DNA of 18,065 bases, taken from Bacteroidia bacterium. Its GTDB lineage: Bacteria; Bacteroidota; Bacteroidia; J057; JANWXU01. The DNA lies in NCBI GenBank assembly GCA_033579355.1, contig JAVQVV010000208.1, positions 1-18,065 on the forward strand. Direction: 5' to 3'. Numbering within the stretch: position 1 is the stretch's first letter; each line of letters starts with the position of its first letter. The notes beneath the pieces are model-generated. The model did not search any database and was not told the DNA's origin. It was given only the letters and a program-made list of their open reading frames with translations. A program made the translations under genes and the position numbers. Positions 1 to 18,049 of this stretch are shown in pieces.

Positions 1-3000
1 GCTAAAGCGATTAAGGCCACTAACCACTTGACTTTCAATTAACTGGCGTGGATTTTCTTGCCATAGTTCTACAGTAGTACCTGGTTCATTAATGAAAGCT
101 TGTATATTCACTTCGCTTACGCCACAAATCCAAGCAGGAGCTTGGAGTATTGGCTGCTGAGGTTGTGACAAAACTTGTATTGCTACAGGCACTCGCTGGC
201 TTTTACAAATTCCTAATTCTGCTTCTACAAAGAAAAAAGTATTACCACTTACGGTAGGAGTTTCTAAAATATAGGGTGCTGTATGAGCAGTGGCAATTGG
301 ATTATTATCCTGTTGGCTTGAATAAAGACGTACAATTGTACCTAAGGGAGAAGCTGTGGCAGTAATATTCACTTTACCCTGCCCACATCGAGTTACCGGG
401 GTAACTACCTCCAGAGTAGGAGTAGGTAAGAAACGAATAGGCACGACTACTCTTTCTGAAAAACAACTGCCTAATTGAGATTGAAGATAATAAGTAAGAG
501 ATGGATTTGCATTCGAAATGCTAAATAAATATGGAAAAGTAGTCAAAGTTTGTAAAGGCGATTGGGCATTGTCGCTTTGCCATAAGTGGATATGGCTAGG
601 AGTAGGAGAAGCAGTTTGTACACTAAAATGTAAACTTTGGCCCTGGCAAACAGTCTGTGGTAATACACTAGGAGCCCCAGGTACAGGCAATACGTTTACA
701 CTAAAACTTACTCGGTTGCTTTCACAGCCTGTTTGGTTATCTTTAGCACTTAACCAAAAGGTAGTATTACTACTAAGAGTACCTAATGTAAGAACATAGG
801 GAGATAAAATACTTTGTAAGGGTGTAATAGCACTTGCAGTAGAATATAAGTGCAAGGTAGTATTCACGCTATTAGGATACGCAATGGTAATAGTTAACTG
901 CCTAGCACCACAAATATCGTAGTTAGTAACTGTTGGAGTTAAGGGTAAAGGCAAAATCTGAATCGGCAAGGGCATTAGAGTAGAGGGGCAGTTGTTACTA
1001 CTTATCACTTCTACATAGTAGGTAGTAGTTTGATTTACCATTCCCCAATTTTGAAAGACAAAGCTAGGCCCTCCACTTACTGCAGCTAAAGGTTGGGAAC
1101 CTGGAATTGCATAAAGCCTTGCCTGAGAACCATTTGTAGAAACCACAGTAAAGGTTACCGTGCCCGCACCACATCTTTGTAATGGTGAAGGAGTAATTGA
1201 AAAAGTAGTAGGCAGCTCTACAGTTACCACAAAAGGAGTACGCAAACTACTACAGCCATTAACTTCTACCTCAGCATAAAAAGTAGTAGTGGCATTGATA
1301 AAGGGTAAAATAACTTCAAAAGGAGAAGTGCGTCTTTGTGCTATTTCCACGCCTCCCTGTGCAAGATTGAAAACGCGCAATACCTCAGTACTGGGAGGTA
1401 AGAAAATAGGGCGTATGGTTGCTACACCACCTTGGCAGAGAGTAGTTGTAGGTATTTGGGGCGCACTAGGCAAAGGAGTAACAAAAATTTCTGTAGTGGA
1501 AGTAGCTACACAACCATTAGCAGCCCTTACTTCCAGAGTATATATTCCTGCTTGAAGAGGCTGGGCATTTTGCAAAAACAGCACTGGATTCGAAGAAAAG
1601 TAATTATTGGGTCCACGCCAAGTATACTGAGCAAAATTGCCAGGCGCCGTGTAACTTATATCTTTTCCTTGGCAAACCACTTGCCTAACGGGCAAGGAAA
1701 GCATAGGTACTTCTAAAATCGTAATAGCTACACCTACTTTTTCGCTTTCACATTGCAATTGTGCATCAAAAGAAGAAATGTAATAAGTGGTACTAGTAGT
1801 AACAGTGCTCGTATTCCAAGCTAAAGGAGTTTGAGTAGTTTGAAAAATAAGTTGCTGTGAAAAGTTATATATTCTAAAACTAGTAGCACTGGCAGAACTA
1901 TGAGTAGCTTCAAGTGTAAAAGCGGCAGCACCACAGTGACTCAAATTACTGGAATTAACGAGAGGGGGCCTAGGAGGAGGTGCTACTGCTACTACAAAAG
2001 GTTGCTTTTCTCCCGCACAATTTGCTTGAACAGCCTCTACTAAATAAGTAGTAGTTGTGCTTACCAAGCCAACATGCCATAGCCACGGATTCTGGGTAAT
2101 AGTTGCAATTTTATTTTGATTGTGGTAGATATTAAGTGCAACACCATTGGGTTGTGGAGGCAAGGGTATAGAAAGAGAATTTCCTTGACAAATTGTTTGC
2201 GGAGCAATAATTGGAGTAACCGGGGGAGGAGTCACAATAATACTAAATGGTACTCTTTGGGTAGTACACTGAGGGGCCTCTACATTTATTGCTTGCAAAT
2301 AATAAGTAACGGTAGTTGTAACAGATACATTCATCGCTCCCCCTAAAGTTTCAAGAATAGGAATACCTCCATTAGGCTGGGTAAATAGTAATATTCTATC
2401 ATTAGCTAAAGCATTATTTACAGTAAATTCTACAATACCTGCTCCACAACGGCTAAGATAAGAAACAGCAGGTGACAATGGCATACGCTGTACAATAGCA
2501 CTCACAGCAATACGCTGACTCTGACAACCACTACTGCTAGCAGCTATATAAAAAGTAGTAGTTTGAGTAATAGGGGGCGTAGTTAAAGTAAATGGTAATG
2601 TACTACTGCTTGCAAGCGGTAGAGCTGCCTGAGCACTTTCAAAAAGAAATACCTCATTAACAGCACCTCCAGCGAGAGGACTAAAAGTAACCACCCCCAT
2701 GCCACATCGAGTTACAGGACTTACTATTGGTGGGGCAGGCTTTTGCGTAGGATCAATAAATAACGTTACTTTAGTACGGGTATTACTTACGCAATTTCTA
2801 TTGAATGACTCTAAGTAATAATCCGCTAAAGTAGTTCCAGTAGGAATAGGTAATAAGAAAGAAAACGGCTGTGAATTATCTTCAGCTATAGGAAAACCCC
2901 CTATACTTTGAGTATACAACCTTACCCCTTGCACAGAGGGGTCTGTTTGTACTCCTTGCAAAAAGTATTGTGAAGCACCCTCACATATGCCAATCAAGGA

Positions 3001-6000
3001 GTTGGGTAAAACTGGAGGCAGCGGAGTAGACAATATTTCAATATTCAAAGGACTTCGAGAACTTTCACAGCCATTTTGCCTATTGCGCAAAGAATAATAA
3101 ATGTTTTGACTTTGACTAAAAGTATAAGTCAAATTGTTAGGGGGTAGTACCTGCAAAGGAGCGCTGGAATGAGCATCGGCATATAAAACAATTTCAAAAT
3201 TAGGGTCATTTATCAAAAAGGTGTGGCTTATGGAAGTATTGCAAGAACTAAGGCTCAATGGGGAGGGAGCAGAAGGAGTAGGAAATACATCAATATTTGC
3301 AGCAATCCTCGAACTATTACATTGTCTTGTTGTTTCAAAAAAATCAAAGTAAAAGGTAGTAGGAAAAGTAGCAGTAGTAACAAACTGAAAGGGTAAACTC
3401 GATAGACTAGCAATGGGAGTAGTAGCATTTGCACTTAAAAAAACTCTAGCGATAGTATTTGCAGGTAGAGCTGCACTAGGTAAAATGGTAAAAGTAACTA
3501 TACTGCCAGCACAAGCCTGCAAGCGGTTAACAATAGGCACGGGTAAATTATTTTCAAGAGTAATAATAACAGGGACTCTTTCACTTTTACAGTTATTTTG
3601 AAAATTGAAGCTTTGAACAAAAAATGTAGTGGTGGTAGTAATGTAGGGTGTGGTAATTAAAGCAGGATTACCACCCGCAGTAGCAAAGGGTTCATTAGCA
3701 ACAGGAGTAGTATATAAAGCTATAGCTTGCCCTCCTGCACCTTCTTGCTGAATGGTAAGCGTAACCATAGAAGCCTGACAAATAGAAACGGGAGCCACCT
3801 TAGGAGCCGCAGGAGTACTAAGCACTTCAATACGACTACTTACTCTAGGGCTGACGCAGTTACTTGCTATATCTATAGATTCAAAGTAGAAAGTTGTTGT
3901 AGTATTCAAAAAAGGAGTTTGCCAGCTGCAAGCGGATAAACAAACTACTGAATCTACGGAGAAAAGGTTTATATCTAATATTCTTACTTTTTTACCTGTA
4001 GCATTTAGGATATTCAAAAGAGCTTTACTGCCCTGACAAATACTTACACTTTGCACCATAGGAGTCATTACTCTAGGAGCTACTACTATTGGTACAGCAA
4101 GCGTATCACTTGGACAAAGGTTATTAGTTTGAACAAAATAAAAAGTAGTGCTTTGACTAATAGCTATTTCTACATTAGTAGCCCCTCTATATAATTGCGC
4201 AATAACAGTATTGCCCAAGTAAGAAGAATACGCTTTGACTGTATCCGCTTCAAAATTAGGGGGTAATGCGAAGCTTACATTTCCTGGTCCACAAAGCTGT
4301 ACAGGGCTTACTATTACCTGGGGTTTAGGGGGTCTTTGCAAAACTCTTGCAATGATAGGTATACTTTCCGAAAAACACCCATCATTACTAGTGCGAAGGT
4401 AAAAAGTAGTAGTAGTAGCGACGGAGGTTTCAAAAATAGCAAAATTTGCCCTTTGGCTCTGTAGTACTTCTTGGTTCTGGGAAAGAAGTTCTATAGCAGT
4501 ACCACCAGGTCTTCCTTGCAACGCAGTAATCGTAATACTTCCACTACCACAGCGTGTAAGTATGGAAGTTGCTGTAGGCGGAGCTGGTCTTTCATGAATA
4601 TAAACTGTTAATAAAGTTCTTTCTCGAGTGCTGCAGCCACTTTGGGTATTAATAGCTTCTAGCCAAAATCTTGTAGTAGTAGTAAGGTTATTGAGAATAA
4701 AAGTATGGGAAGGACCTAAGCTTTCTTGTAAGGGTTCGCCGCCGCTACGTTGTGAATATAAGCGGATAAGGGTATTAGGACTAGCACTGATTGAAAACGA
4801 GATATTGCCTGCACCACAGCGATGTACTTGGTTACTCGAGACTTCAATGTTGGGTAATGGTAATACGGTAATACTTGCGGGCTTACGATCACTTTCACAG
4901 CCTAAGCCTGAATGAAATACTGAAGCATAAAACGTAGTATGAGTAGTAATATTATTAAGCGTGAAAGTATAAGGAGCAGAACTACTAACTGCCATAAGCT
5001 GCCCGTCTTGTGGCGCATCGTATAAACGAATTTCTGTACCAGCCGGACTGCCCATATTTGCCGTGAGAGTAACTATGCCCCCTCCACAGGTAGTTATTGA
5101 ATTTATTTGTGGAATCGATAGGTGAATAACTTCAATTCGTAAAGGTACTCTTTCACTTTCGCAGTTACCATAAGCAGCAGAGAAATGATAAGTTGTGGTG
5201 GTAGTTATATTGTATATAGGAAATAAGTAAGGTGCCATAGGACGTGTATCTAAAGGCTCTGCGTCTTGCATACTTTCATACATTCGAATTTCAGGTGCTA
5301 GAGCATTATTAGGCAATACAGTAATTATTGTTTGCGCTGCCCCACAAAGTCGAATATTCTGCACTATAGGTGGGTTAGGTTTATTAACAATTTGAAAAAA
5401 CACGGGCTTCAAAGTAGTACATCGGGTTTGTTGATTAATAACCTGCACATAATATGTAGTAGAACTAGTTAAGATAGGAGTAATAAGAACAAAGGGTTCT
5501 GTAACGGCACTACTTAAAACTGTTCCCAAGGGATCTTGCAGCAACCGTACTTCTGTGCCTACGCTGGGATTAGGTATTTGAACACTAAAACTAATTTTTC
5601 CACTGCCGCAACGAGTAAGCTCTTTGGTATTAATAAAAGGCTCTTGGGCAGAAAATATAGTTACAGAAGCAGCAGAACGTACTAAGCTTTCGCAGCCCGT
5701 TCGAGAGTCTACGGATACAAAGTAATAGGTAATAGTTTGATTAGCCGCTGTAGAAAAAAGAAAAGGTTCTCTTTCCAGAGTTGCTACAGGTCTTGTTCCT
5801 TCGCTTTGAGTATACACTCTTACAAAGTGCCCTTGGGGAACACCTAAAGCAGTAAAAGTAACTAACCCAGTCTCACAGCGCTGAATGTTTTCTACAATAG
5901 GTGGAGTTGGCCCCTCTGAAAGCTGCACTACCACAGGAGTACGGGTAGTACTAGCACAACCATTAGCACTGTATCGGGTGCTTAAAAAGAAAGTAGTGGT

Positions 6001-6989
6001 AGTAGTAAGTTCGGGTGTTTCAAAAACATAAGGCGAGGTAGCATCCACTGCCAGCGGCTCACCCCCAAAAGGGGTTGCATATAGCAGTACCTCATCGCCG
6101 GGAGGAATATTCATAAAAGCAGAAATACTTACTTTTCCTGCTCCGCATCGACTAATATTTTGGGCTATAGGAGGTGCGGGTGGATTAATTGCTGTCGCCG
6201 TAACCTTCATACGGCTCGTACTACTACAACCACTTTGAGAAAAATAGCTACCTATCCAAAAATCTTGAGTTTCTCCCGCCATAAGGGTAGTAGTAAGCTC
6301 GTTGATACCCACGGCTATAGGCTGCCCTCCCTGCTCTTGAGTATATAAATGGACTTCGTCCCCCGAAGGATTACCCATTGTAACACTAAAGGTAACATTT
6401 CCACTACCACAGATAGTTACATTAGTATTTTCTACACTAGGAGTAGCAGGAGTAGTAGTTACTTGTACAAAAACTGGGGTGCGGGTACTGCTTTCACAAT
6501 ACCCAAGCCTAGTAGAAAGATAAAAAGTAGTAAGAGTTGTAACAACAGGCGTAGTAAGCAAATAAGGGGCATTAGAAGTAGAATCAATAGCTTGGGTAGC
6601 TTGCTCTTGGGTATATAAATATATTGTAGTACCGGGAACTAAGCCCATAGTTGCTGTAAAAGTCGCTACCGAGCTAGCACATAAATTTATCGAAGAGGCT
6701 GTGGGCGGCGAAGGAATAGGAGAAATATTTACTTCTAAAGAAGTGCGAGTAGGAGAATAACAATCTGTTAGTACATCCACGGTTTGCAGATAAAAGGTAG
6801 TAGGACCTGTAATATCTGGAGTAATAAGCTGATAAGGAGCTGCATTGGTAAAAGTAATTACAGTGCTTGAAAAGGGTGAATCATAAAGCATAATTGTACT
6901 TCCTGCCGGGTTACCCATAAAAGCAGTGATAGTTACTGGCCCCGGTCCACAGCGCGCATAGGCAATTGCAGTTGGGGGAGCGGGAGGCA
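1..6989 (-). repeat. Tandem array of ~27 coding repeats (~250-260 nt, ~85 aa each) encoding two-cysteine Ig-like domains. The array continues past window position 1.
   Basis: Each unit has a P-rich linker, [RLTI]CG.G.V[TS][FI][TS]A, G..I.LY......G.P[LI]A, TTT[FY][FY], GC.S.R, then PV.V.V. Repeats with [RLTI]CG.G-type motifs in order: AYARCGPGPVTITAF, VTICGSGNVTF, ISRCGAGKVSISAF, LTRCGSGKISFSV, ITTCGGGIVTLTA, VHRCGAGNISFSI, LTRCGSGSITITA, VTRCGMGVVTFS, LSRCGAGIVEFTV, LQRCGAGTVTFTV, VTRCGQGKVNITA. Near-identical nucleotide strings recur, e.g. cccacatcgagttaccgg at 381-398 and gccacatcgagttacagg at 2700-2717. Confidence 0.75.
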
Positions 6990-9186
6990 AACTGCAAACT
7001 AAAGAATCTCCAAATTTTATAATATATGCATCGCTAATACCAGCAAAAGATTGCATAAATTGCCCAGGCTGTTGCAAAAGGGGTAGATTGGAACTACTAC
7101 TTCCTGCTACCAAAACAGCATTATGACAATCATCAATGGTAATGCCTTTAGCAAAGTCTAAACCCGTAGAGCCTAAATAAGTAGACCAACTCAAGCTACC
7201 TGTACTTACATGAAAGCGCGTTAATAGAATATCTTCTGCACCTGCCAAAGTAGTATTTTGGAAAGGTCCTCCTGATTGCAAAGGAATATCTAAACTACTG
7301 GTTTTACCTACCGCTAACCAATAATTAGGAGGCATGTATTGCAAACTTTCCAATAGATCAGACCCTGTACTTCCACCCAAAGCGGTTGCCCAAAGCAAGG
7401 CACCTGTAGAATTGAAGCTTAGAACCATTGCATCCCAAAAGCCTGCCAAAGCTTGAGAATACTGATTAGTATTTTGAGTAATAGGAAAATCATTGCTAGC
7501 TGTTGCTCCTATTATGCACACTGTATTATTAGGCGCTACTTTAATATCGGTTACAACTTCATCGCTACTTCCCCCATAAAAGCAACCCCAATTATAAATA
7601 CCGCTACTTGTAAATTGCATTATAAAAGCCTCGCTAGCTCCACTACCACTATAAGCCTGATAATATTGCCCAGCATTTTGAGTAATAGGAAAATCAAGAC
7701 TAAAGGTAGTTCCTGCTAGGTATATTAAGTTACCTGTGCTACTAAAAGCAACACTATTTACTCGGTCTTGGTCAGTTCCTCCTACATAGGTAGACCAAAG
7801 TAGATTATCTTGGTCATCAAGCAAAAATAGAAAACCATCCCCTGTATTTCCGCCAAAGGGTTGGTTGTACTGCCCAGGGTTGTTGGTTATAGGAAAGCTA
7901 GTACTGGTAGTAAAACCAACACAAGCAACTTTATTATCAGGTGAAATAGCTATTTTCAAAACTTCATCGAAAGAATTACCCCCTCCGCCTAAGTAAGTAG
8001 ACCATAATAATGCACCATCGGTATCCAATTTCGTAATAAAACCATCACTATAAATGCCGTTTACTCCTTGAAAGCTTTGGGTATATTTGCTAGAATCATT
8101 AGTATAAGGGAAATTACTACTAAAAGTAGTACCTCCTACATAAACTTCACCATTCGAATTAACAGCAATAGTAGTACCAAAATCGTCTTCATTTCCGCCT
8201 AAATAAGTAATCCATAGTAGCTGCCCACATTTATTAAATTTAGCTACCCAAGCTTCGGCATTTCCTTTGTGAATAGGCTGCCATGCACCTGGTAAAATAT
8301 TAATATCGTTACTATAAGTAGTGCCTGTAATATAATTAGCACCTACTAGATCAGTGGCAACAGCTTCTGCATTATCTGGTTGGCTACCCCCTAAAAAACT
8401 GGCCCATAAGATAGGGTCAATAATTAAAGTCTTTTGTTTGTCGTAATTTTCAAGAGTGAAACTCCAAGTTTCAGTTTCTGTATTGTAGTACCAATTGGCA
8501 TTTAAAAGATTTGCTTTTGCGCTTGAAAAAGGAGAATATTTTGTAAGCTCAAAATTTTCTACCGAAAAGGCTACTGGTTTAGTTTGAACAACATAACCAT
8601 TGGGGAAAGAAATTTTTTGATGTTTTTCTTCTTCACTAAGTAAAATTTCTTGCGCTCCTTGAATTTTTAATTGAATATCTCTGGGATTAGCACCAGGATG
8701 TAGCACAAAATCATATTCGAAAACTAAATCTTTGGAACTAGAGCCCCCAGGGGACTTTGATGGAATAGAATAAACTAAATCAATTTTAGGATAAACATTT
8801 TTTATCCAAACTCTTTGATAAGTGGCTAATTGAGCTCGAGTACCTTGAGTGTAAACATTTACAAAAGGAATGGATTTTTCTAAAAATACAACCTGAGCAT
8901 TAGGATTAGCTTCCACCAATTCAAAAGCTAAGCGATAAACCTGAGTACTATAATAAGAATTATACGTACCCAATTTAGAAGCAGAAGCTTGAAAAAAATC
9001 TAGGGTAAAAGTGTTACTTGCAAAATTTGCTCTGATATTTCCGTTTTGGAGGGTAAAATAATTATCAAATGGTGCCCTTGGTAGAAAATAAGTATTTTGA
9101 GCAAGCCCTTTAGCCCCAAGTAGCAAACTTAAGTAACTAGCGCTCAACCAAAAGGCAAGGGTAAATTTTAGTATGATTTTCTTCAT
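1..9186 (-). CDS. Giant secreted cell-surface protein (adhesin-like), partial: signal peptide + N-terminal module + SBBP beta-propeller + ~27 tandem Ig-like repeats. C-terminus lies beyond window position 1; >=3062 aa are in the window.
   Basis: Minus-strand ATG at 9184-9186; hand translation gives MKKIILKFTLAFWLSASYLSLLLGAKGLAQ... The frame is exactly in register down to position 1. The ORF track shows no terminated minus-strand ORF in this frame anywhere in 1-9186; the only other minus ORF (4716-4898) is in a different frame. Spot translations stay in frame: 382-399 gives PVTRCG, and 1560-1670 gives GKDISYTAPGNFAQYTWRGPNNYFSSNPVLFLQNAQ. All plus-strand ORFs listed for 1-9186 are short and antisense. 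Confidence 0.85.
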   Translation of the reverse strand, partial: MKKIILKFTLAFWLSASYLSLLLGAKGLAQNTYFLPRAPFDNYFTLQNGNIRANFASNTFTLDFFQASASKLGTYNSYYSTQVYRLAFELVEANPNAQVVFLEKSIPFVNVYTQGTRAQLATYQRVWIKNVYPKIDLVYSIPSKSPGGSSSKDLVFEYDFVLHPGANPRDIQLKIQGAQEILLSEEEKHQKISFPNGYVVQTKPVAFSVENFELTKYSPFSSAKANLLNANWYYNTETETWSFTLENYDKQKTLIIDPILWASFLGGSQPDNAEAVATDLVGANYITGTTYSNDINILPGAWQPIHKGNAEAWVAKFNKCGQLLWITYLGGNEDDFGTTIAVNSNGEVYVGGTTFSSNFPYTNDSSKYTQSFQGVNGIYSDGFITKLDTDGALLWSTYLGGGGNSFDEVLKIAISPDNKVACVGFTTSTSFPITNNPGQYNQPFGGNTGDGFLFLLDDQDNLLWSTYVGGTDQDRVNSVAFSSTGNLIYLAGTTFSLDFPITQNAGQYYQAYSGSGASEAFIMQFTSSGIYNWGCFYGGSSDEVVTDIKVAPNNTVCIIGATASNDFPITQNTNQYSQALAGFWDAMVLSFNSTGALLWATALGGSTGSDLLESLQYMPPNYWLAVGKTSSLDIPLQSGGPFQNTTLAGAEDILLTRFHVSTGSLSWSTYLGSTGLDFAKGITIDDCHNAVLVAGSSSSNLPLLQQPGQFMQSFAGISDAYIIKFGDSLVCSLPPAPPTAIAYARCGPGPVTITAFMGNPAGSTIMLYDSPFSSTVITFTNAAPYQLITPDITGPTTFYLQTVDVLTDCYSPTRTSLEVNISPIPSPPTASSINLCASSVATFTATMGLVPGTTIYLYTQEQATQAIDSTSNAPYLLTTPVVTTLTTFYLSTRLGYCESSTRTPVFVQVTTTPATPSVENTNVTICGSGNVTFSVTMGNPSGDEVHLYTQEQGGQPIAVGINELTTTLMAGETQDFWIGSYFSQSGCSSTSRMKVTATAINPPAPPIAQNISRCGAGKVSISAFMNIPPGDEVLLYATPFGGEPLAVDATSPYVFETPELTTTTTFFLSTRYSANGCASTTRTPVVVQLSEGPTPPIVENIQRCETGLVTFTALGVPQGHFVRVYTQSEGTRPVATLEREPFLFSTAANQTITYYFVSVDSRTGCESLVRSAASVTIFSAQEPFINTKELTRCGSGKISFSVQIPNPSVGTEVRLLQDPLGTVLSSAVTEPFVLITPILTSSTTYYVQVINQQTRCTTLKPVFFQIVNKPNPPIVQNIRLCGAAQTIITVLPNNALAPEIRMYESMQDAEPLDTRPMAPYLFPIYNITTTTTYHFSAAYGNCESERVPLRIEVIHLSIPQINSITTCGGGIVTLTANMGSPAGTEIRLYDAPQDGQLMAVSSSAPYTFTLNNITTHTTFYASVFHSGLGCESDRKPASITVLPLPNIEVSSNQVHRCGAGNISFSISASPNTLIRLYSQRSGGEPLQESLGPSHTFILNNLTTTTRFWLEAINTQSGCSTRERTLLTVYIHERPAPPTATSILTRCGSGSITITALQGRPGGTAIELLSQNQEVLQSQRANFAIFETSVATTTTFYLRTSNDGCFSESIPIIARVLQRPPKPQVIVSPVQLCGPGNVSFALPPNFEADTVKAYSSYLGNTVIAQLYRGATNVEIAISQSTTFYFVQTNNLCPSDTLAVPIVVAPRVMTPMVQSVSICQGSKALLNILNATGKKVRILDINLFSVDSVVCLSACSWQTPFLNTTTTFYFESIDIASNCVSPRVSSRIEVLSTPAAPKVAPVSICQASMVTLTIQQEGAGGQAIALYTTPVANEPFATAGGNPALITTPYITTTTTFFVQSFNFQNNCKSERVPVIITLENNLPVPIVNRLQACAGSIVTFTILPSAALPANTIARVFLSANATTPIASLSSLPFQFVTTATFPTTFYFDFFETTRQCNSSRIAANIDVFPTPSAPSPLSLSSCNTSISHTFLINDPNFEIVLYADAHSSAPLQVLPPNNLTYTFSQSQNIYYSLRNRQNGCESSRSPLNIEILSTPLPPVLPNSLIGICEGASQYFLQGVQTDPSVQGVRLYTQSIGGFPIAEDNSQPFSFLLPIPTGTTLADYYLESFNRNCVSNTRTKVTLFIDPTQKPAPPIVSPVTRCGMGVVTFSPLAGGAVNEVFLFESAQAALPLASSSTLPFTLTTPPITQTTTFYIAASSSGCQSQRIAVSAIVQRMPLSPAVSYLSRCGAGIVEFTVNNALANDRILLFTQPNGGIPILETLGGAMNVSVTTTVTYYLQAINVEAPQCTTQRVPFSIIVTPPPVTPIIAPQTICQGNSLSIPLPPQPNGVALNIYHNQNKIATITQNPWLWHVGLVSTTTTYLVEAVQANCAGEKQPFVVAVAPPPRPPLVNSSNLSHCGAAAFTLEATHSSASATSFRIYNFSQQLIFQTTQTPLAWNTSTVTTSTTYYISSFDAQLQCESEKVGVAITILEVPMLSLPVRQVVCQGKDISYTAPGNFAQYTWRGPNNYFSSNPVLFLQNAQPLQAGIYTLEVRAANGCVATSTTEIFVTPLPSAPQIPTTTLCQGGVATIRPIFLPPSTEVLRVFNLAQGGVEIAQRRTSPFEVILPFINATTTFYAEVEVNGCSSLRTPFVVTVELPTTFSITPSPLQRCGAGTVTFTVVSTNGSQARLYAIPGSQPLAAVSGGPSFVFQNWGMVNQTTTYYVEVISSNNCPSTLMPLPIQILPLPLTPTVTNYDICGARQLTITIAYPNSVNTTLHLYSTASAITPLQSILSPYVLTLGTLSSNTTFWLSAKDNQTGCESNRVSFSVNVLPVPGAPSVLPQTVCQGQSLHFSVQTASPTPSHIHLWQSDNAQSPLQTLTTFPYLFSISNANPSLTYYLQSQLGSCFSERVVVPIRFLPTPTLEVVTPVTRCGQGKVNITATASPLGTIVRLYSSQQDNNPIATAHTAPYILETPTVSGNTFFFVEAELGICKSQRVPVAIQVLSQPQQPILQAPAWICGVSEVNIQAFINEPGTTVELWQENPRQLIESQVVSGLNRFS
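6990..8406 (-). other. SBBP-type beta-propeller repeat region, about 7-8 blades
   Basis: Translated repeats of ~55-60 aa with a recurring pattern: LLW[SA]TYLGG...D.g..IAv...G.vYv.G.T.S.DFP.T.N..Q....G..DgFi.kf. For example: LLWITYLGGNEDDFGTTIAVNSNGEVYVGGTTFSSNFPYT, LLWSTYLGGGGNSFDEVLKIAIS, LLWSTYVGGTDQDRVNSVAF, LSWSTYLGSTGLDFAKGITID. This is characteristic of the SBBP beta-propeller repeat family. Confidence 0.7.
8407..9096 (-). other. N-terminal ~230-aa module of the giant protein, preceding the propeller; function unknown
   Basis: Translated segment contains ...KDLVFEYDFVLHPGANPRDIQLKIQGAQEILLSEEEKHQKISFPNGYVVQTKPVAFSVENFEL..., resembling the conserved N-terminal module found in front of SBBP repeats in large Bacteroidota surface proteins. 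This is from memory, not searched. Confidence 0.4.
9097..9186 (-). other. N-terminal signal peptide of the giant protein (about 30 aa)
   Basis: Translated MKKIILKFTLAFWLSASYLSLLLGAKGLAQ: positively charged n-region (KK), hydrophobic core, and an AKG-LAQ-type small-residue cleavage region. Confidence 0.7.
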
Positions 9187-15889: not shown

Positions 15890-18049
15890 ATGAAAAAAAT
15901 TCAGTATTGCTTCCTCATTGTAGTACTACTTGCTTCCGTAAGGGGGAATGTTAAAGGTACGCCGCCTGACGAAGGAATGTGGCTACCGCTTTTAATTTCA
16001 CAAAATTTTAGTGAAATGCAGCGCTTAGGTCTAAAGCTGACTCCTGAGCAAATTTATTCGATCAATCAATCCAGCCTAAAAGATGCAATTGTTCATTTTG
16101 GGGGGGGCTGCACAGGAGAAATCATTTCTCCCGAAGGACTTTTACTTACCAACCATCACTGCGGCTATGGTCAAATTCAAAGTCACAGCACTGTGGAAAA
16201 TGACTATCTTACCAACGGCTTTTGGGCTAAAAGTAAAAAAGAAGAACTTCCTAACGAAGGACTAGTAGTATCCTTTTTGGAAAGAATAGAAGATGTTACA
16301 GAAAGAGTAAAAAGGCAGCTTAGTGATGATATGTCTGAAATTGAAAGGCAACAAAAACTACAAACTCAAATTATTCCGCAAATAGAAAAAGAAGCTAGCC
16401 AGGGTGGAAAATACCGAGCAGTAGTTAAGGAAATGTATGCTGGCAGCGAATTTTACTTATTTGTGTATCAAGACTATAAAGATGTTCGGCTTGTAGGAGC
16501 TCCACCCGAGTCTATTGGCAAATTTGGGGGAGATACAGATAACTGGATGTGGCCAAGGCATACGGGCGATTTTACATTATTCCGCGTATACATGGCACCT
16601 GATGGCAGTCCTGCCGAATATAGCCCCAATAATGTACCCTATCGCTCCAAACATTATCTTCCTATCTCGGCTAAGGGTATACAAAAAAATGATTTTGCTA
16701 TGATTATGGGGTACCCCGGCCGCACTAACCGCTACCTTACTTCCTATGAAGTAGAACAAATTTTTGAGCAAGATAACCCACTGCGTATCAAACTAAGGGA
16801 AAAAAGACTTGCCCTCATGAAAGAAGATATGGATGCTGACCCTATCATTCGTATCAAATACGCCTCCAAGTATGCTGCTATAAGTAATTACTATAAGTAT
16901 TTTATTGGTCAAAATAAAGGGCTGCGACGTTTACGTACTATAGAGTATAAGAGAGAACAGGAACAAAAATTCATGGAATGGGTGAATGCTGACCCCCAAC
17001 GCAAGCAACGCTACGGAAAAATTTTTCAAGAAATGAAAGAAGCCGTGGAGCAAAACCGCACTATAAACCCTACTAATATCTATTTTCGAGAAGCAGTATT
17101 AGCCTCAGAACTACTTTTGCTAGCCCACCGACTAAGCTTTACTTATGATAAGCTCGTAAGTGGTAAAAAACCTACCCAAGAAGAACTCGAAGACCTTAAA
17201 GAGATGGCGGCTAAAATACACAAAGACTACAACTACGCCACTGATATTAAAATAACAAGTGCCCTTTTTCAAATGTACGAAAAAGATATACCCAAAGAAC
17301 ACCAGCCAGAAGTTTTTCAACTGATCCAAAAAAAGTATAAGGGTAACTACAAGGCCTTCTTTGAAAAAACTTTTGGAGCTTCCATTCTGAAAGACCCTAA
17401 AAAACTTGAAAATTTTATTACTAATTTTGACCATAAAGTGCTAGAGAAAGACCCCGCTTTTAAGCTATACTTAGATATCCGTACGAAAGTTCGAAGTGTA
17501 GTAACTACTATCTCACAAAACTATGAGCTTACTCGCCTTAAAAACACAAGACTGTATATAGAAGGACTTCGTAAAATGCATAGTAATAAGCTCTTCTACC
17601 CCGATGCCAATTCTACTATGCGTCTAACCTACGGCAAAGTGCTGGACTACAAACCTATGGATGCAGTACATTTTGATTACATTACTACTATTGACGGAAT
17701 TTTTGAAAAAGAAGATCCTACCAACCCTGAATTTATTGTTCCATCTAAATTAGCAGAGCTTTATAAAAAGAAAGACTACGGCCGCTGGGGAAGCAATGGT
17801 ACTTTAGTAACCTGTTTTATTACTGATAACGATATTACGGGTGGAAATTCTGGAAGTCCTGTAATTAACGGAGAAGGACACCTTATTGGCGTAGCTTTTG
17901 ATGGCAATTGGGAAGCAATGACTGGCGATATTGTTTTTGATAAGGAACTTAAGCGAACAATTTGTGTAGACGCGCGCTACGTACTTTTTATTATTGATAA
18001 ATTTGCAGGCGCCACTAATATTTTGAAAGAATTGGATATTCGATACTAA
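15890..18049 (+). CDS. S46-family dipeptidyl-peptidase (DPP7/DPP11-like serine peptidase), 719 aa, secreted/periplasmic
   Basis: Signal peptide MKKIQYCFLIVVLLASVRG, then the conserved S46 mature N-terminus DEGMWLP. Catalytic His in the TNHHCGYG context, and catalytic Ser in GGNSGSPVINGEGHLIGVAFDGNWEAM (chymotrypsin-fold GDSGGP equivalent). The length and the alpha-helical insert (aa ~280-560) are typical of S46. Confidence 0.9.
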   Translation: MKKIQYCFLIVVLLASVRGNVKGTPPDEGMWLPLLISQNFSEMQRLGLKLTPEQIYSINQSSLKDAIVHFGGGCTGEIISPEGLLLTNHHCGYGQIQSHSTVENDYLTNGFWAKSKKEELPNEGLVVSFLERIEDVTERVKRQLSDDMSEIERQQKLQTQIIPQIEKEASQGGKYRAVVKEMYAGSEFYLFVYQDYKDVRLVGAPPESIGKFGGDTDNWMWPRHTGDFTLFRVYMAPDGSPAEYSPNNVPYRSKHYLPISAKGIQKNDFAMIMGYPGRTNRYLTSYEVEQIFEQDNPLRIKLREKRLALMKEDMDADPIIRIKYASKYAAISNYYKYFIGQNKGLRRLRTIEYKREQEQKFMEWVNADPQRKQRYGKIFQEMKEAVEQNRTINPTNIYFREAVLASELLLLAHRLSFTYDKLVSGKKPTQEELEDLKEMAAKIHKDYNYATDIKITSALFQMYEKDIPKEHQPEVFQLIQKKYKGNYKAFFEKTFGASILKDPKKLENFITNFDHKVLEKDPAFKLYLDIRTKVRSVVTTISQNYELTRLKNTRLYIEGLRKMHSNKLFYPDANSTMRLTYGKVLDYKPMDAVHFDYITTIDGIFEKEDPTNPEFIVPSKLAELYKKKDYGRWGSNGTLVTCFITDNDITGGNSGSPVINGEGHLIGVAFDGNWEAMTGDIVFDKELKRTICVDARYVLFIIDKFAGATNILKELDIRY

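Follow-up and report, generated by a model that had tools for sequence, protein, structure and literature searches.

GhpA of Aureispira sp. [quoted passage not shown] It is a proven heptamer, its domains are linked by inter-domain disulfides (e.g., Cys2988-Cys3140, 152 residues apart), and ghpB and ghpC, which encode PorP and PorE homologues, lie downstream of its gene (bioRxiv 10.1101/2024.01.29.577165). SprB of Flavobacterium johnsoniae is likewise a very large, repetitive surface filament exported by T9SS. A further group joins DUF7948 (PF25778) to SBBP propeller repeats (PF06739); these proteins are mostly 600–1400 aa long and carry varied other C-terminal modules. [quoted passage not shown]

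We conclude with good confidence that the giant gene of the locus described here encodes a 3632-residue Bacteroidota surface protein that is exported by T9SS and carries a propeller head on a stalk built from 31 Ig-like domains, and that the MVP homologue encoded beside it is an unrelated neighbour.

The giant gene and its complete product

The window, that is, the whole stretch of DNA analysed, is an entire contig of 18,065 bp, and the giant gene is therefore cut by the contig end. It occupies positions 1..9186 on the minus strand, covers codons 1–3062 of 3632 in a stop-free frame, and is deposited in GenBank as MDW8159314.1 (“SBBP repeat-containing protein, partial”). An in-frame TAA two codons upstream of the ATG makes 9186 the first possible start. 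By exhaustive representative search and cluster look-up, the window protein (identical to P0267) was traced together with P0413, a complete 3632-aa protein from a sister MAG that differs from it by two substitutions across the 3062 shared residues (aa 1–3062); word-index searches with the head and with the array recovered neither of the two. P0414, a 487-aa fragment from the same MAG as the window, is 100% identical to aa 3146–3632 of P0413. The earlier note had described an incomplete reading frame of more than 3000 aa, and both the open frame running off the contig and the complete form agree with it. P0413 was the sole orthologue found and comes from the same species; when metagenomes were scanned with the final 300 residues of the window protein, no close relative came up.

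The C-terminus, which lies outside the window, was read from these two proteins. In P0413, Pfam places an fn3 domain at 3446–3518 and Por_Secre_tail (PF18962) at 3557–3629 (9e-13), and P0414 scores 43.6 bits against TIGR04183 (cut-off, 23), so that in both proteins fn3 is followed by a terminal T9SS sorting domain of type A. CHU_C (PF13585/TIGR04131, type B) gave no match in full-length P0413. A T9SS sorting domain of the TIGR04183 or TIGR04131 type had been anticipated before the end of the gene was available; the type A form is what was found and the type B form is absent. The predicted T9SS targeting now rests on an observed type A sorting domain in a near-identical full-length protein. The label “gliding-associated,” which had also been attached to the protein, is not borne out: SprB repeats (PF13573) are absent from both the window protein and P0413, the sorting domain is type A and that of SprB is type B, and no sprF-like partner is visible. 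The 18-kb contig carries no T9SS machinery genes. Related loci encode other Por_Secre_tail and CHU_C proteins.

An Ig_7 stalk with regularly spaced cysteines

Within the window, the stalk spans aa 738–3062 (positions 1..6975, minus strand) and comprises units R01–R26 complete and R27 cut, as supported by Pfam Ig_7, repeat analysis, AlphaFold2 (AF2), and matches to GhpA; the full-length protein has 31 units at aa 738–3438. The units follow a period of ~88 aa, and each contains two invariant cysteines. Pfam Ig_7 matches 20 stretches of the window protein (2e-155), and an NCBIfam search of that part of the protein gave no match. One unit is odd: R21 (aa 2497–2575; positions 1462..1698, minus strand) is Ig_2-like, with the motif Y-x-W-x-G-P-N and a weak Pfam Ig_2 match at aa 2502–2569. 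Sites matching the Bacteroidota O-glycosylation motif, D-(S/T)-(A/I/L/V/M/T), number 5 where 6.7 would be expected, so the motif shows no enrichment.

The AF2 model of unit R08 (pLDDT 95.2) is a seven-strand sandwich with its two cysteines at opposite ends of the domain, the first at the A'-B turn and the second within the F-G loop. The spacing from the first cysteine of one unit to the second cysteine of the next is 140–153 residues (mean, 148). Judging from the model and by analogy with GhpA, the invariant cysteines probably staple neighbouring Ig domains into a rod; this pattern is deduced from secondary-structure topology and cysteine spacing. A conventional disulfide within each domain, where the cysteine pair is 54–64 residues apart, is a less probable alternative.

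A populated family of Ig_7-array cargo

The array places the protein in a large and uncharacterised set of T9SS type A cargo, which includes P0269 (4965 aa), P0271 (4832 aa), and P0272 (6444 aa). These proteins have 12–47 units with 32–39% identity to the array described here; most begin with a signal peptide, and of the complete members checked, the majority have fn3 followed by Por_Secre_tail at the C-terminus. Among the 22 best giant Ig_7-array relatives (2.9–6.4 kaa), 18 have a terminal Por_Secre_tail and 4 are truncated; an fn3 match directly precedes the tail in 17 of these 18, and CHU_C occurs in none of the 22 (18 complete). CHU_C does appear in more distant Ig_7 proteins, namely in 14 of the 26 weak matches from a word-index array search and also at the MVP loci L001 and L038. 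A scan of the 144 top representatives found 54 with at least three such Ig units. The giant protein is of an ordinary, well-populated kind, the giant Ig_7-array T9SS cargo, and it is the heads of these relatives that differ from its own DUF7948-SBBP head.

Comparison with the GhpA appendage

The strongest PDB sequence match by far was GhpA (phmmer E 1.2e-85, many matched stretches), and in a PDB fold search with a stalk unit the top TM-scores belonged to the GhpA stem fragments 9fls and 9flw (Foldseek TM 0.71–0.72, rmsd 2.5–2.7; a third GhpA entry is 9flp). All above-threshold matches fall in the Ig array, at query residues 2320–2858, with the strongest at ~aa 2386–2593, around R21, and phmmer returned no GhpA match in the head. 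Among solved structures, GhpA is the stalk's closest relative.

The resemblance raises the question of whether this could be a genuine grappling hook, i.e., a GhpA-type heptameric, rigid appendage for capturing prey or particles, here tipped with propellers in place of hooks. The homology of stalk and stem (E 1.2e-85; TM 0.72) speaks for it, as do the cysteine spacing, which fits the GhpA inter-domain disulfide, and the shared layout of Sec signal peptide, distal N-terminal binding module, Ig stem, and C-terminal T9SS signal. Among the MVP-bearing lineages, moreover, are two ixotroph genera, Aureispira and Saprospira, as well as Microscilla, which has been observed to bear grappling-hook-like structures. 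Against these points, the head is DUF7948 plus SBBP and not an adhesin-like hook module, the protein has 31 units and 3632 residues against 52 and 5898 in GhpA, and its sorting domain belongs to type A; GhpA, by contrast, is depicted as type B cargo and has its PorP/PorE homologues downstream. The likeness to GhpA is, in addition, a likeness to the widely shared repeat counted above. We therefore consider a true grappling hook unlikely. The same low weight is given to the broader proposal that the protein represents a new class of rigid, disulfide-stapled, possibly multimeric GhpA-like appendage, with a ring of propeller tips and type A anchoring, that captures cells or particles; should this doubtful proposal be true, grappling-hook-type structures would extend past the ixotrophic Saprospiria and Cytophagia to an uncultured Bacteroidia lineage.

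A DUF7948-SBBP head on an Ig_7 stalk

By a rule-based reading of the translation, the N-terminus (aa 1–29; positions 9100..9186, minus strand) is a Sec signal peptide, with MKKIILK followed by a hydrophobic core and GLA|Q. Three lysines make its n-region positively charged, the hydrophobic core is 17 residues long, small residues occupy positions −3 and −1, and signal peptidase I cleavage is predicted to leave Gln at +1. The N-terminus lacks a lipobox cysteine, the first cysteine of the protein being aa 320. DUF7948 follows at aa 44–259 (positions 8410..9057, minus strand; PF25778, E 1.9e-27) as a module that is all-beta in the AF2 model, and precedes the SBBP beta-propeller at aa 260–737 (positions 6976..8409, minus strand), which is supported by Pfam SBBP (E 6e-18), seven sequence repeats, and the AF2 model. 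The model of aa 31–745 has a pLDDT of 81.8, mostly >85 in the propeller, and has 28 strands beyond DUF7948, equivalent to seven blades and not eight. The architecture proposed in the earlier note, with signal peptide, N-terminal module, SBBP propeller, and Ig stalk, is upheld by these results, including the PF06739 match to the propeller region, and its “7–8” blades are narrowed to seven.

The succession of PF25778 and PF06739 repeats (Pfam, AF2) is the layout of the DUF7948-SBBP proteins, from which the giant protein differs in its length and its Ig_7 array. By word-index search, thousands of head homologues with ~30% identity occur across Acidobacteriota, Cyanobacteria, archaea, and further groups, and none of the 120 best word-index matches to the head contains Ig_7. 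Both the top PDB fold match (E 2e-27) and the PDB sequence match of the head are to CylK, so the head might be regarded as a secreted CylK-like catalytic propeller enzyme, with the Ig array a mere spacer. Yet this best solved match amounts to only 17–18% identity and a TM of 0.5, its sequence part is limited to generic SBBP blades, and heads of this type occur in thousands of secreted proteins from many phyla with diverse C-terminal modules; an enzyme of the CylK type is accordingly very improbable, and CylK, unlike the giant protein, is not a stalked surface protein.

For the surface protein favoured here, the rare trait is the combination of head and stalk. Among the representatives scanned, no other member with at least 10 units has a DUF7948 plus SBBP head, and in the sequences compared the combination is otherwise found only in a paralogue of the same genome. 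This paralogue, RML72_07815 (P0364/P0411), lies on a separate contig and has a full-length orthologue, P0412, of 4003 aa. It is colinear with the giant protein (signal peptide, DUF7948, SBBP, an Ig_7 array with the same starting position, and TIGR04183 at the C-terminus), at 28% identity, and differs from it in that the array turns into many Ig_2-like units.

The MVP homologue as a neighbour

The MVP homologue (814 aa; positions 9414..11858, plus strand) is recognised by the Pfam families MVP_shoulder (2.8e-26) and Vault_3 (5e-8). It has 6678 scored database matches, and nearly all of the 120 listed come from bacterial genomes or metagenomes. The head-to-head arrangement reported earlier is exact: the divergent start codons are separated by an AT-rich spacer of 227 bp (positions 9187..9413). 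The accompanying suggestion of a shared regulatory region fares less well, as promoter signals in the spacer do not rise above chance. The spacer contains one Bacteroidota-type −7 motif, TATTTTTG, at 9321–9328 on the plus strand, and such motifs are no more frequent in the window than chance predicts (21 occurrences against 25 expected). No sigma-70-like site lies in the spacer, the one found (9032–9059) falling inside the giant gene; no terminator-like site was detected in 9000–9600, and Rfam and tRNA scans returned nothing.

Conservation of the adjacency was assessed from the MVP side, the sole orthologue of the giant protein being from the same species. The set comprised 87 MVP loci, drawn from the three closest relatives and 80 species genomes, of which 60 had at least 3 kb upstream. 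None of the 87 has a homologue of the giant protein's head within 10 kb of MVP, and the three closest MVP relatives (73–77% identity) have iPGM/LplA, IPT, or unrelated genes upstream. There is no conserved MVP neighbour family, each family recurring beside MVP at 13 or fewer of 82 loci. Only two distinct loci have an Ig_7 protein near MVP, in both cases downstream and with another architecture. The Ig_7-PKD-CHU_C protein of locus L001, 7.6 kb from MVP, was considered as an orthologue and rejected (29% identity, type B sorting domain, downstream, different orientation). In the Aureispira locus L073, a 2260-aa open reading frame upstream of MVP had no Pfam or PDB match.

These data bear on the idea that the two genes are functionally paired and under common control from the divergent region between them. 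Their head-to-head placement, the occurrence of MVP homologues in gliding taxa (10.1101/872010), and the presence of some large surface protein close to MVP at L003, L046, and L001 would favour such a pair, but the large neighbours at other MVP loci are mutually unrelated (Calx-beta, TMEM260-like, FG-GAP, alpha-2-macroglobulin, and TPR proteins). The locus survey and the spacer scans largely refute the pairing, which we regard as highly improbable. On the sequence comparisons made here, the MVP gene appears to stand beside the giant gene by chance and not as part of the same system.

Integrity of the gene

The minus-strand frame that opens with the ATG at 9186 reads through 3062 codons to position 1 with no stop, and the five alternative frames of this stretch contain 146–363 stops each. 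Stalk units share a mean pairwise identity of 25%, and no long near-identical DNA repeats were found in the stalk-encoding region, which together argue that the stalk is not an assembly artefact. Although the gene ends at a contig edge and repeats frequently break assemblies, a pseudogene or collapsed-repeat artefact is refuted as an extremely improbable reading by this open frame, by the divergence of the repeats, and by the complete copy in a second, independent MAG, with its two substitutions in 3062 residues.

A proposed surface fibril and its significance

For a Bacteroidia surface fibril exported by T9SS, with a propeller head and an Ig_7 stalk, the following course can be proposed. The Sec signal peptide, as read from the sequence, would carry the protein to the periplasm, and the type A sorting domain (TIGR04183) at its C-terminus, together with the preceding fn3, would route it through T9SS. 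After export, the sorting domain would presumably be removed and the protein either attached C-terminally to the outer surface or set free, as suggested by type A cargo of Porphyromonas gingivalis; type A cargo may be released instead of anchored. Scaled from GhpA (5898 aa, 240 nm), the 31 Ig_7 domains and fn3 would form a stalk of ~110–130 nm, probably stiffened by disulfides from the first cysteine of each unit to the second cysteine of the next, as the model topology and GhpA suggest. The DUF7948 and seven-blade head would then stand at the far end of the stalk, where it may bind a ligand on a surface, a particle, or another cell.

The suggestive pairing of a vault protein with a giant adhesin is not conserved, which is a clean negative and therefore provides no handle on the function of bacterial MVP homologues. 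The sister MAG allowed the gene to be completed to 3632 aa, and the protein connects a large uncharacterised family of Ig_7-array T9SS cargo to its only solved example, GhpA. It also offers a structural prediction, in which inter-domain disulfide staples would run in a chain down the stalk.

Recovered C-terminus and sorting signal

The giant gene comprises 3062 stop-free codons on the minus strand, from an ATG at 9186 to position 1, and the remaining five frames over these 9186 bases contain 146–363 stops. Its start is fixed at 9186 because an in-frame TAA lies two codons 5' of the ATG, and as the window is the entire 18065-bp contig, the gene is truncated by the assembly end. The coordinates and layout described in the earlier note proved correct, with the open frame, the Pfam domains and the 227-bp spacer to the major vault protein (MVP) homologue all recovered; a stop codon, which would indicate a pseudogene, was absent from all 3062 codons.

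Word-index searches returned matches at about 30% identity only for the head and, for the Ig-like array, 26 matches at ≤38% identity (≤29% where at least one fifth of the query was covered), and a metagenome scan using the last 300 window residues revealed no near relative. The window protein itself (P0267) emerged from an exhaustive search of representatives, and a cluster look-up then gave two further members: P0413 (MCS6905547.1), a complete 3632-aa protein of a sister MAG with 2 substitutions over 3062 shared residues, and P0414 (MDW8158327.1), a partial 487-aa protein from the window MAG's accession series that is 100% identical to P0413 aa 3146–3632. P0413 carries 31 Ig_7-type units (aa 738–3438) followed by a short Cys-containing linker, an fn3 domain (3446–3518) and a Por_Secre_tail domain (3557–3629, E 9e-13), and TIGR04183 scored 43.6 bits on P0414 (cut-off 23). 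T9SS targeting, formerly a prediction, is therefore observed; of the two sorting-domain types proposed earlier, the ends of P0413 and P0414 bear TIGR04183 (type A) and not the TIGR04131 type (type B, CHU_C). The giant protein is a real and correctly described feature, extended now to 3632 aa, and is a type A T9SS cargo despite the Pfam name of Ig_7, which suggests type B.

Domain anatomy of head and stalk

The translation begins with a predicted Sec signal peptide (aa 1–29: MKKIILK, a hydrophobic core, then GLA before the cleavage point and Q after it) in which no lipobox Cys was found; a Gln at +1 is in keeping with what has been described of Bacteroidota signal peptidase I substrates. Pfam identified DUF7948 (aa 44–259) and SBBP, and an AlphaFold2 model of the head (aa 31–745, 63 homologues, pLDDT 81.8, pTM 0.76) adopts an all-beta fold whose 28 strands after the DUF7948 part form seven four-stranded blades, bearing out the SBBP propeller of seven or eight blades claimed previously. 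Its best solved match is the CylK propeller (Foldseek E 2e-27, TM 0.5, 17–18% identity).

The stalk is a regular array from aa 738 with a unit of ~88 aa, of which the window holds 26 complete and one cut; Pfam assigns Ig_7 to 20 stretches (E 2e-155). The units share two cysteines as their only invariant positions, their mean identity is 25% (maximum 42%), and repeats that are long or nearly identical are absent at the DNA level; the array is therefore old and not an assembly artefact. Unit R21 (aa 2497–2575; window 1462–1698, minus strand) is a single Ig_2-like break in the otherwise uniform Ig_7 array, being shorter, with the motif YTWRGPNNYF and one weak Ig_2 match (aa 2502–2569). The strongest matches to GhpA, the Aureispira grappling hook protein, lie in the query stretch surrounding it (about aa 2386–2593).

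Comparison with GhpA and proposed architecture

A model of unit R08 (pLDDT 95.2) is a seven-strand sandwich whose best TM-scores in a PDB fold search were to GhpA stem fragments (TM 0.71–0.72, rmsd 2.5–2.7 Å), and the whole giant protein matches GhpA at E 1.2e-85; its stalk and the GhpA stem are relatives. Features of GhpA are a Sec signal peptide, a distal N-terminal hook module, a rigid, heptameric, 240-nm stem of 52 Ig-like repeats with inter-domain disulfides (e.g. Cys2988-Cys3140), a C-terminal T9SS signal, and PorP and PorE homologues encoded downstream (bioRxiv 10.1101/2024.01.29.577165). The head of the giant protein differs from the hook module, which places it outside the GhpA family proper, and because it has a type A CTD, its anchoring mode is probably different as well. 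Its repeats and CTD type likewise separate it from the SprB family.

In the R08 model, the first invariant Cys occupies the A'-B turn (C-terminal end of the domain) and the second the F-G loop (N-terminal end), placements that do not readily allow the two to pair inside a single domain. From the first Cys of one unit to the second of the next there are 140–153 residues (mean 148), compared with 152 spanned by the GhpA disulfide, and the pattern extends into fn3 (C3366 to C3519/C3522, 153–156 residues). From the modelled Cys positions and this GhpA-like spacing we infer a chain of disulfide staples that would link neighbouring stalk domains. Scaled from GhpA, the stalk may measure ~110–130 nm and would bear the propeller head at its distal tip, its C-terminus being either anchored or released. 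C731 (in GDSLVCSLPP; nt about 6992–6994) sits just where the propeller ends, and C809 (nt about 6758–6760), the second of the two cysteines in the first Ig unit, is otherwise without a partner; under the staple model, C731 could be that partner.

The neighbouring vault protein gene

The MVP homologue (9414–11858, plus strand) matches Pfam MVP_shoulder (2.8e-26) and Vault_3 (5e-8) and is one of a very large family with numerous bacterial members. A word-index search gave 6678 scored hits, of which the 120 listed come almost exclusively from bacterial genomes or metagenomes, and a scan of species genomes confirmed 267 stretches across many phyla, including Cytophagales, Saprospiraceae, Desulfonema, Anaerolineae, Myxococcota, Sericytochromatia, Riflebacteria and others. 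A single MVP entry was matched in the PDB (9z4w_A, E 2e-11, aa 442–785, shoulder and cap helix). The genes 3' of MVP (11996–18049: acyl-CoA dehydrogenase, phosphoribosyltransferase, short-chain dehydrogenase, fatty-acid desaturase and S46 DPP7/11-type peptidase) are ordinary housekeeping genes, the S46 peptidase being consistent with a Bacteroidota origin.

The three closest MVP relatives (73–77% identity) all have upstream genes different from that of the window, namely iPGM and LplA (L006/L007), IPT with small ORFs (L001), or two co-directional PKD/Ig/fn3 proteins (L003). The latter pair (L003 1139–9218, plus strand; MVP 75% identity) consists of large T9SS-type surface proteins preceding MVP on the same strand, one of 1704 aa (Ig_2/PKD/Ig_7) and one of 999 aa (fn3 plus Por_Secre_tail). 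Six-frame translations of 87 fetched MVP loci, 60 of them extending 3 kb or more upstream, were searched with the head and with a unit HMM built from all 27. The head had no homologue in any of the 87, and Ig_7 units occurred only in L001/L008 (an Ig_7 x7-PKD-CHU_C protein 7.6 kb downstream, 29% identity) and L038 (NHL propeller-Ig_7 x3-CHU_C). Large upstream ORFs at other loci were mutually unrelated (Calx-beta/Big_9, TMEM260-like, FG-GAP, alpha-2-macroglobulin, PKD-CHU_C, TPR), and none of the families obtained by all-against-all clustering of MVP neighbours reached beyond 13 of 82 loci. Bacterial MVP behaves as a stand-alone gene without a conserved neighbour, and the recurrence of orthologous giant genes beside MVP in relatives, raised in the earlier note, was not borne out in the 87 loci.

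The shared regulatory region suggested there also finds no support, as the 227-bp spacer holds one Bacteroidota -7-like motif, at a frequency in the window equal to chance, and no other regulatory signal. The 87 loci, neighbour clustering and spacer scan gave no evidence linking the giant protein to the vault-protein homologue. In an Anaerolineae MAG (L046 3–6185, minus strand), a giant gene is transcribed divergently from MVP and truncated where the contig ends, as in the window; its product is unrelated (at least 2061 aa; CBM_11, Calx-beta, Big_9), and the arrangement appears to be coincidental, among filamentous bacteria with large genomes. An uncultured Aureispira sp. (L073 3053–9832, plus strand) carries a 2260-aa ORF directly 5' of MVP in the same direction, with no Pfam match and no PDB sequence match. 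According to a preprint (10.1101/872010), bacterial MVPs occur in gliding taxa; this is a matter of lineage distribution and not of gene linkage. On evidence from the MVP side only, the sole orthologue of the giant gene being conspecific, we regard the head-to-head placement of the two genes as incidental.

A populous family and a rare head-plus-stalk combination

The representative search returned dozens of giant relatives (2–6.4 kaa, 12–47 Ig_7 units) that are 32–39% identical to the array. Among 22 of the best relatives, 18 end in Por_Secre_tail, preceded in 17 by an fn3 match, and 4 are truncated; none has CHU_C, and their heads are unlike that of the giant protein. In a scan of 144 top representatives, at least three Ig_7 units were present in 54 and a DUF7948-like head in 29, and the two coincided in just two proteins, the giant protein and P0364 (RML72_07815), a paralogue on a different contig of the same MAG. 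This paralogue is colinear with the giant protein over aa 44–1200 (28% identity) and shares its layout of DUF7948, SBBP, Ig_7 and type A CTD; a full-length orthologue (P0412, 4003 aa) and a C-terminal fragment with TIGR04183 (P0411) were also recovered. The paralogue's stalk turns into many Ig_2-like 'W-x-G-P-x-G-F' units, resembling the GhpA neck. Giant Ig_7-array surface proteins with type A T9SS signals are a known and populous group, within which the head-plus-stalk pairing of the giant protein is rare.
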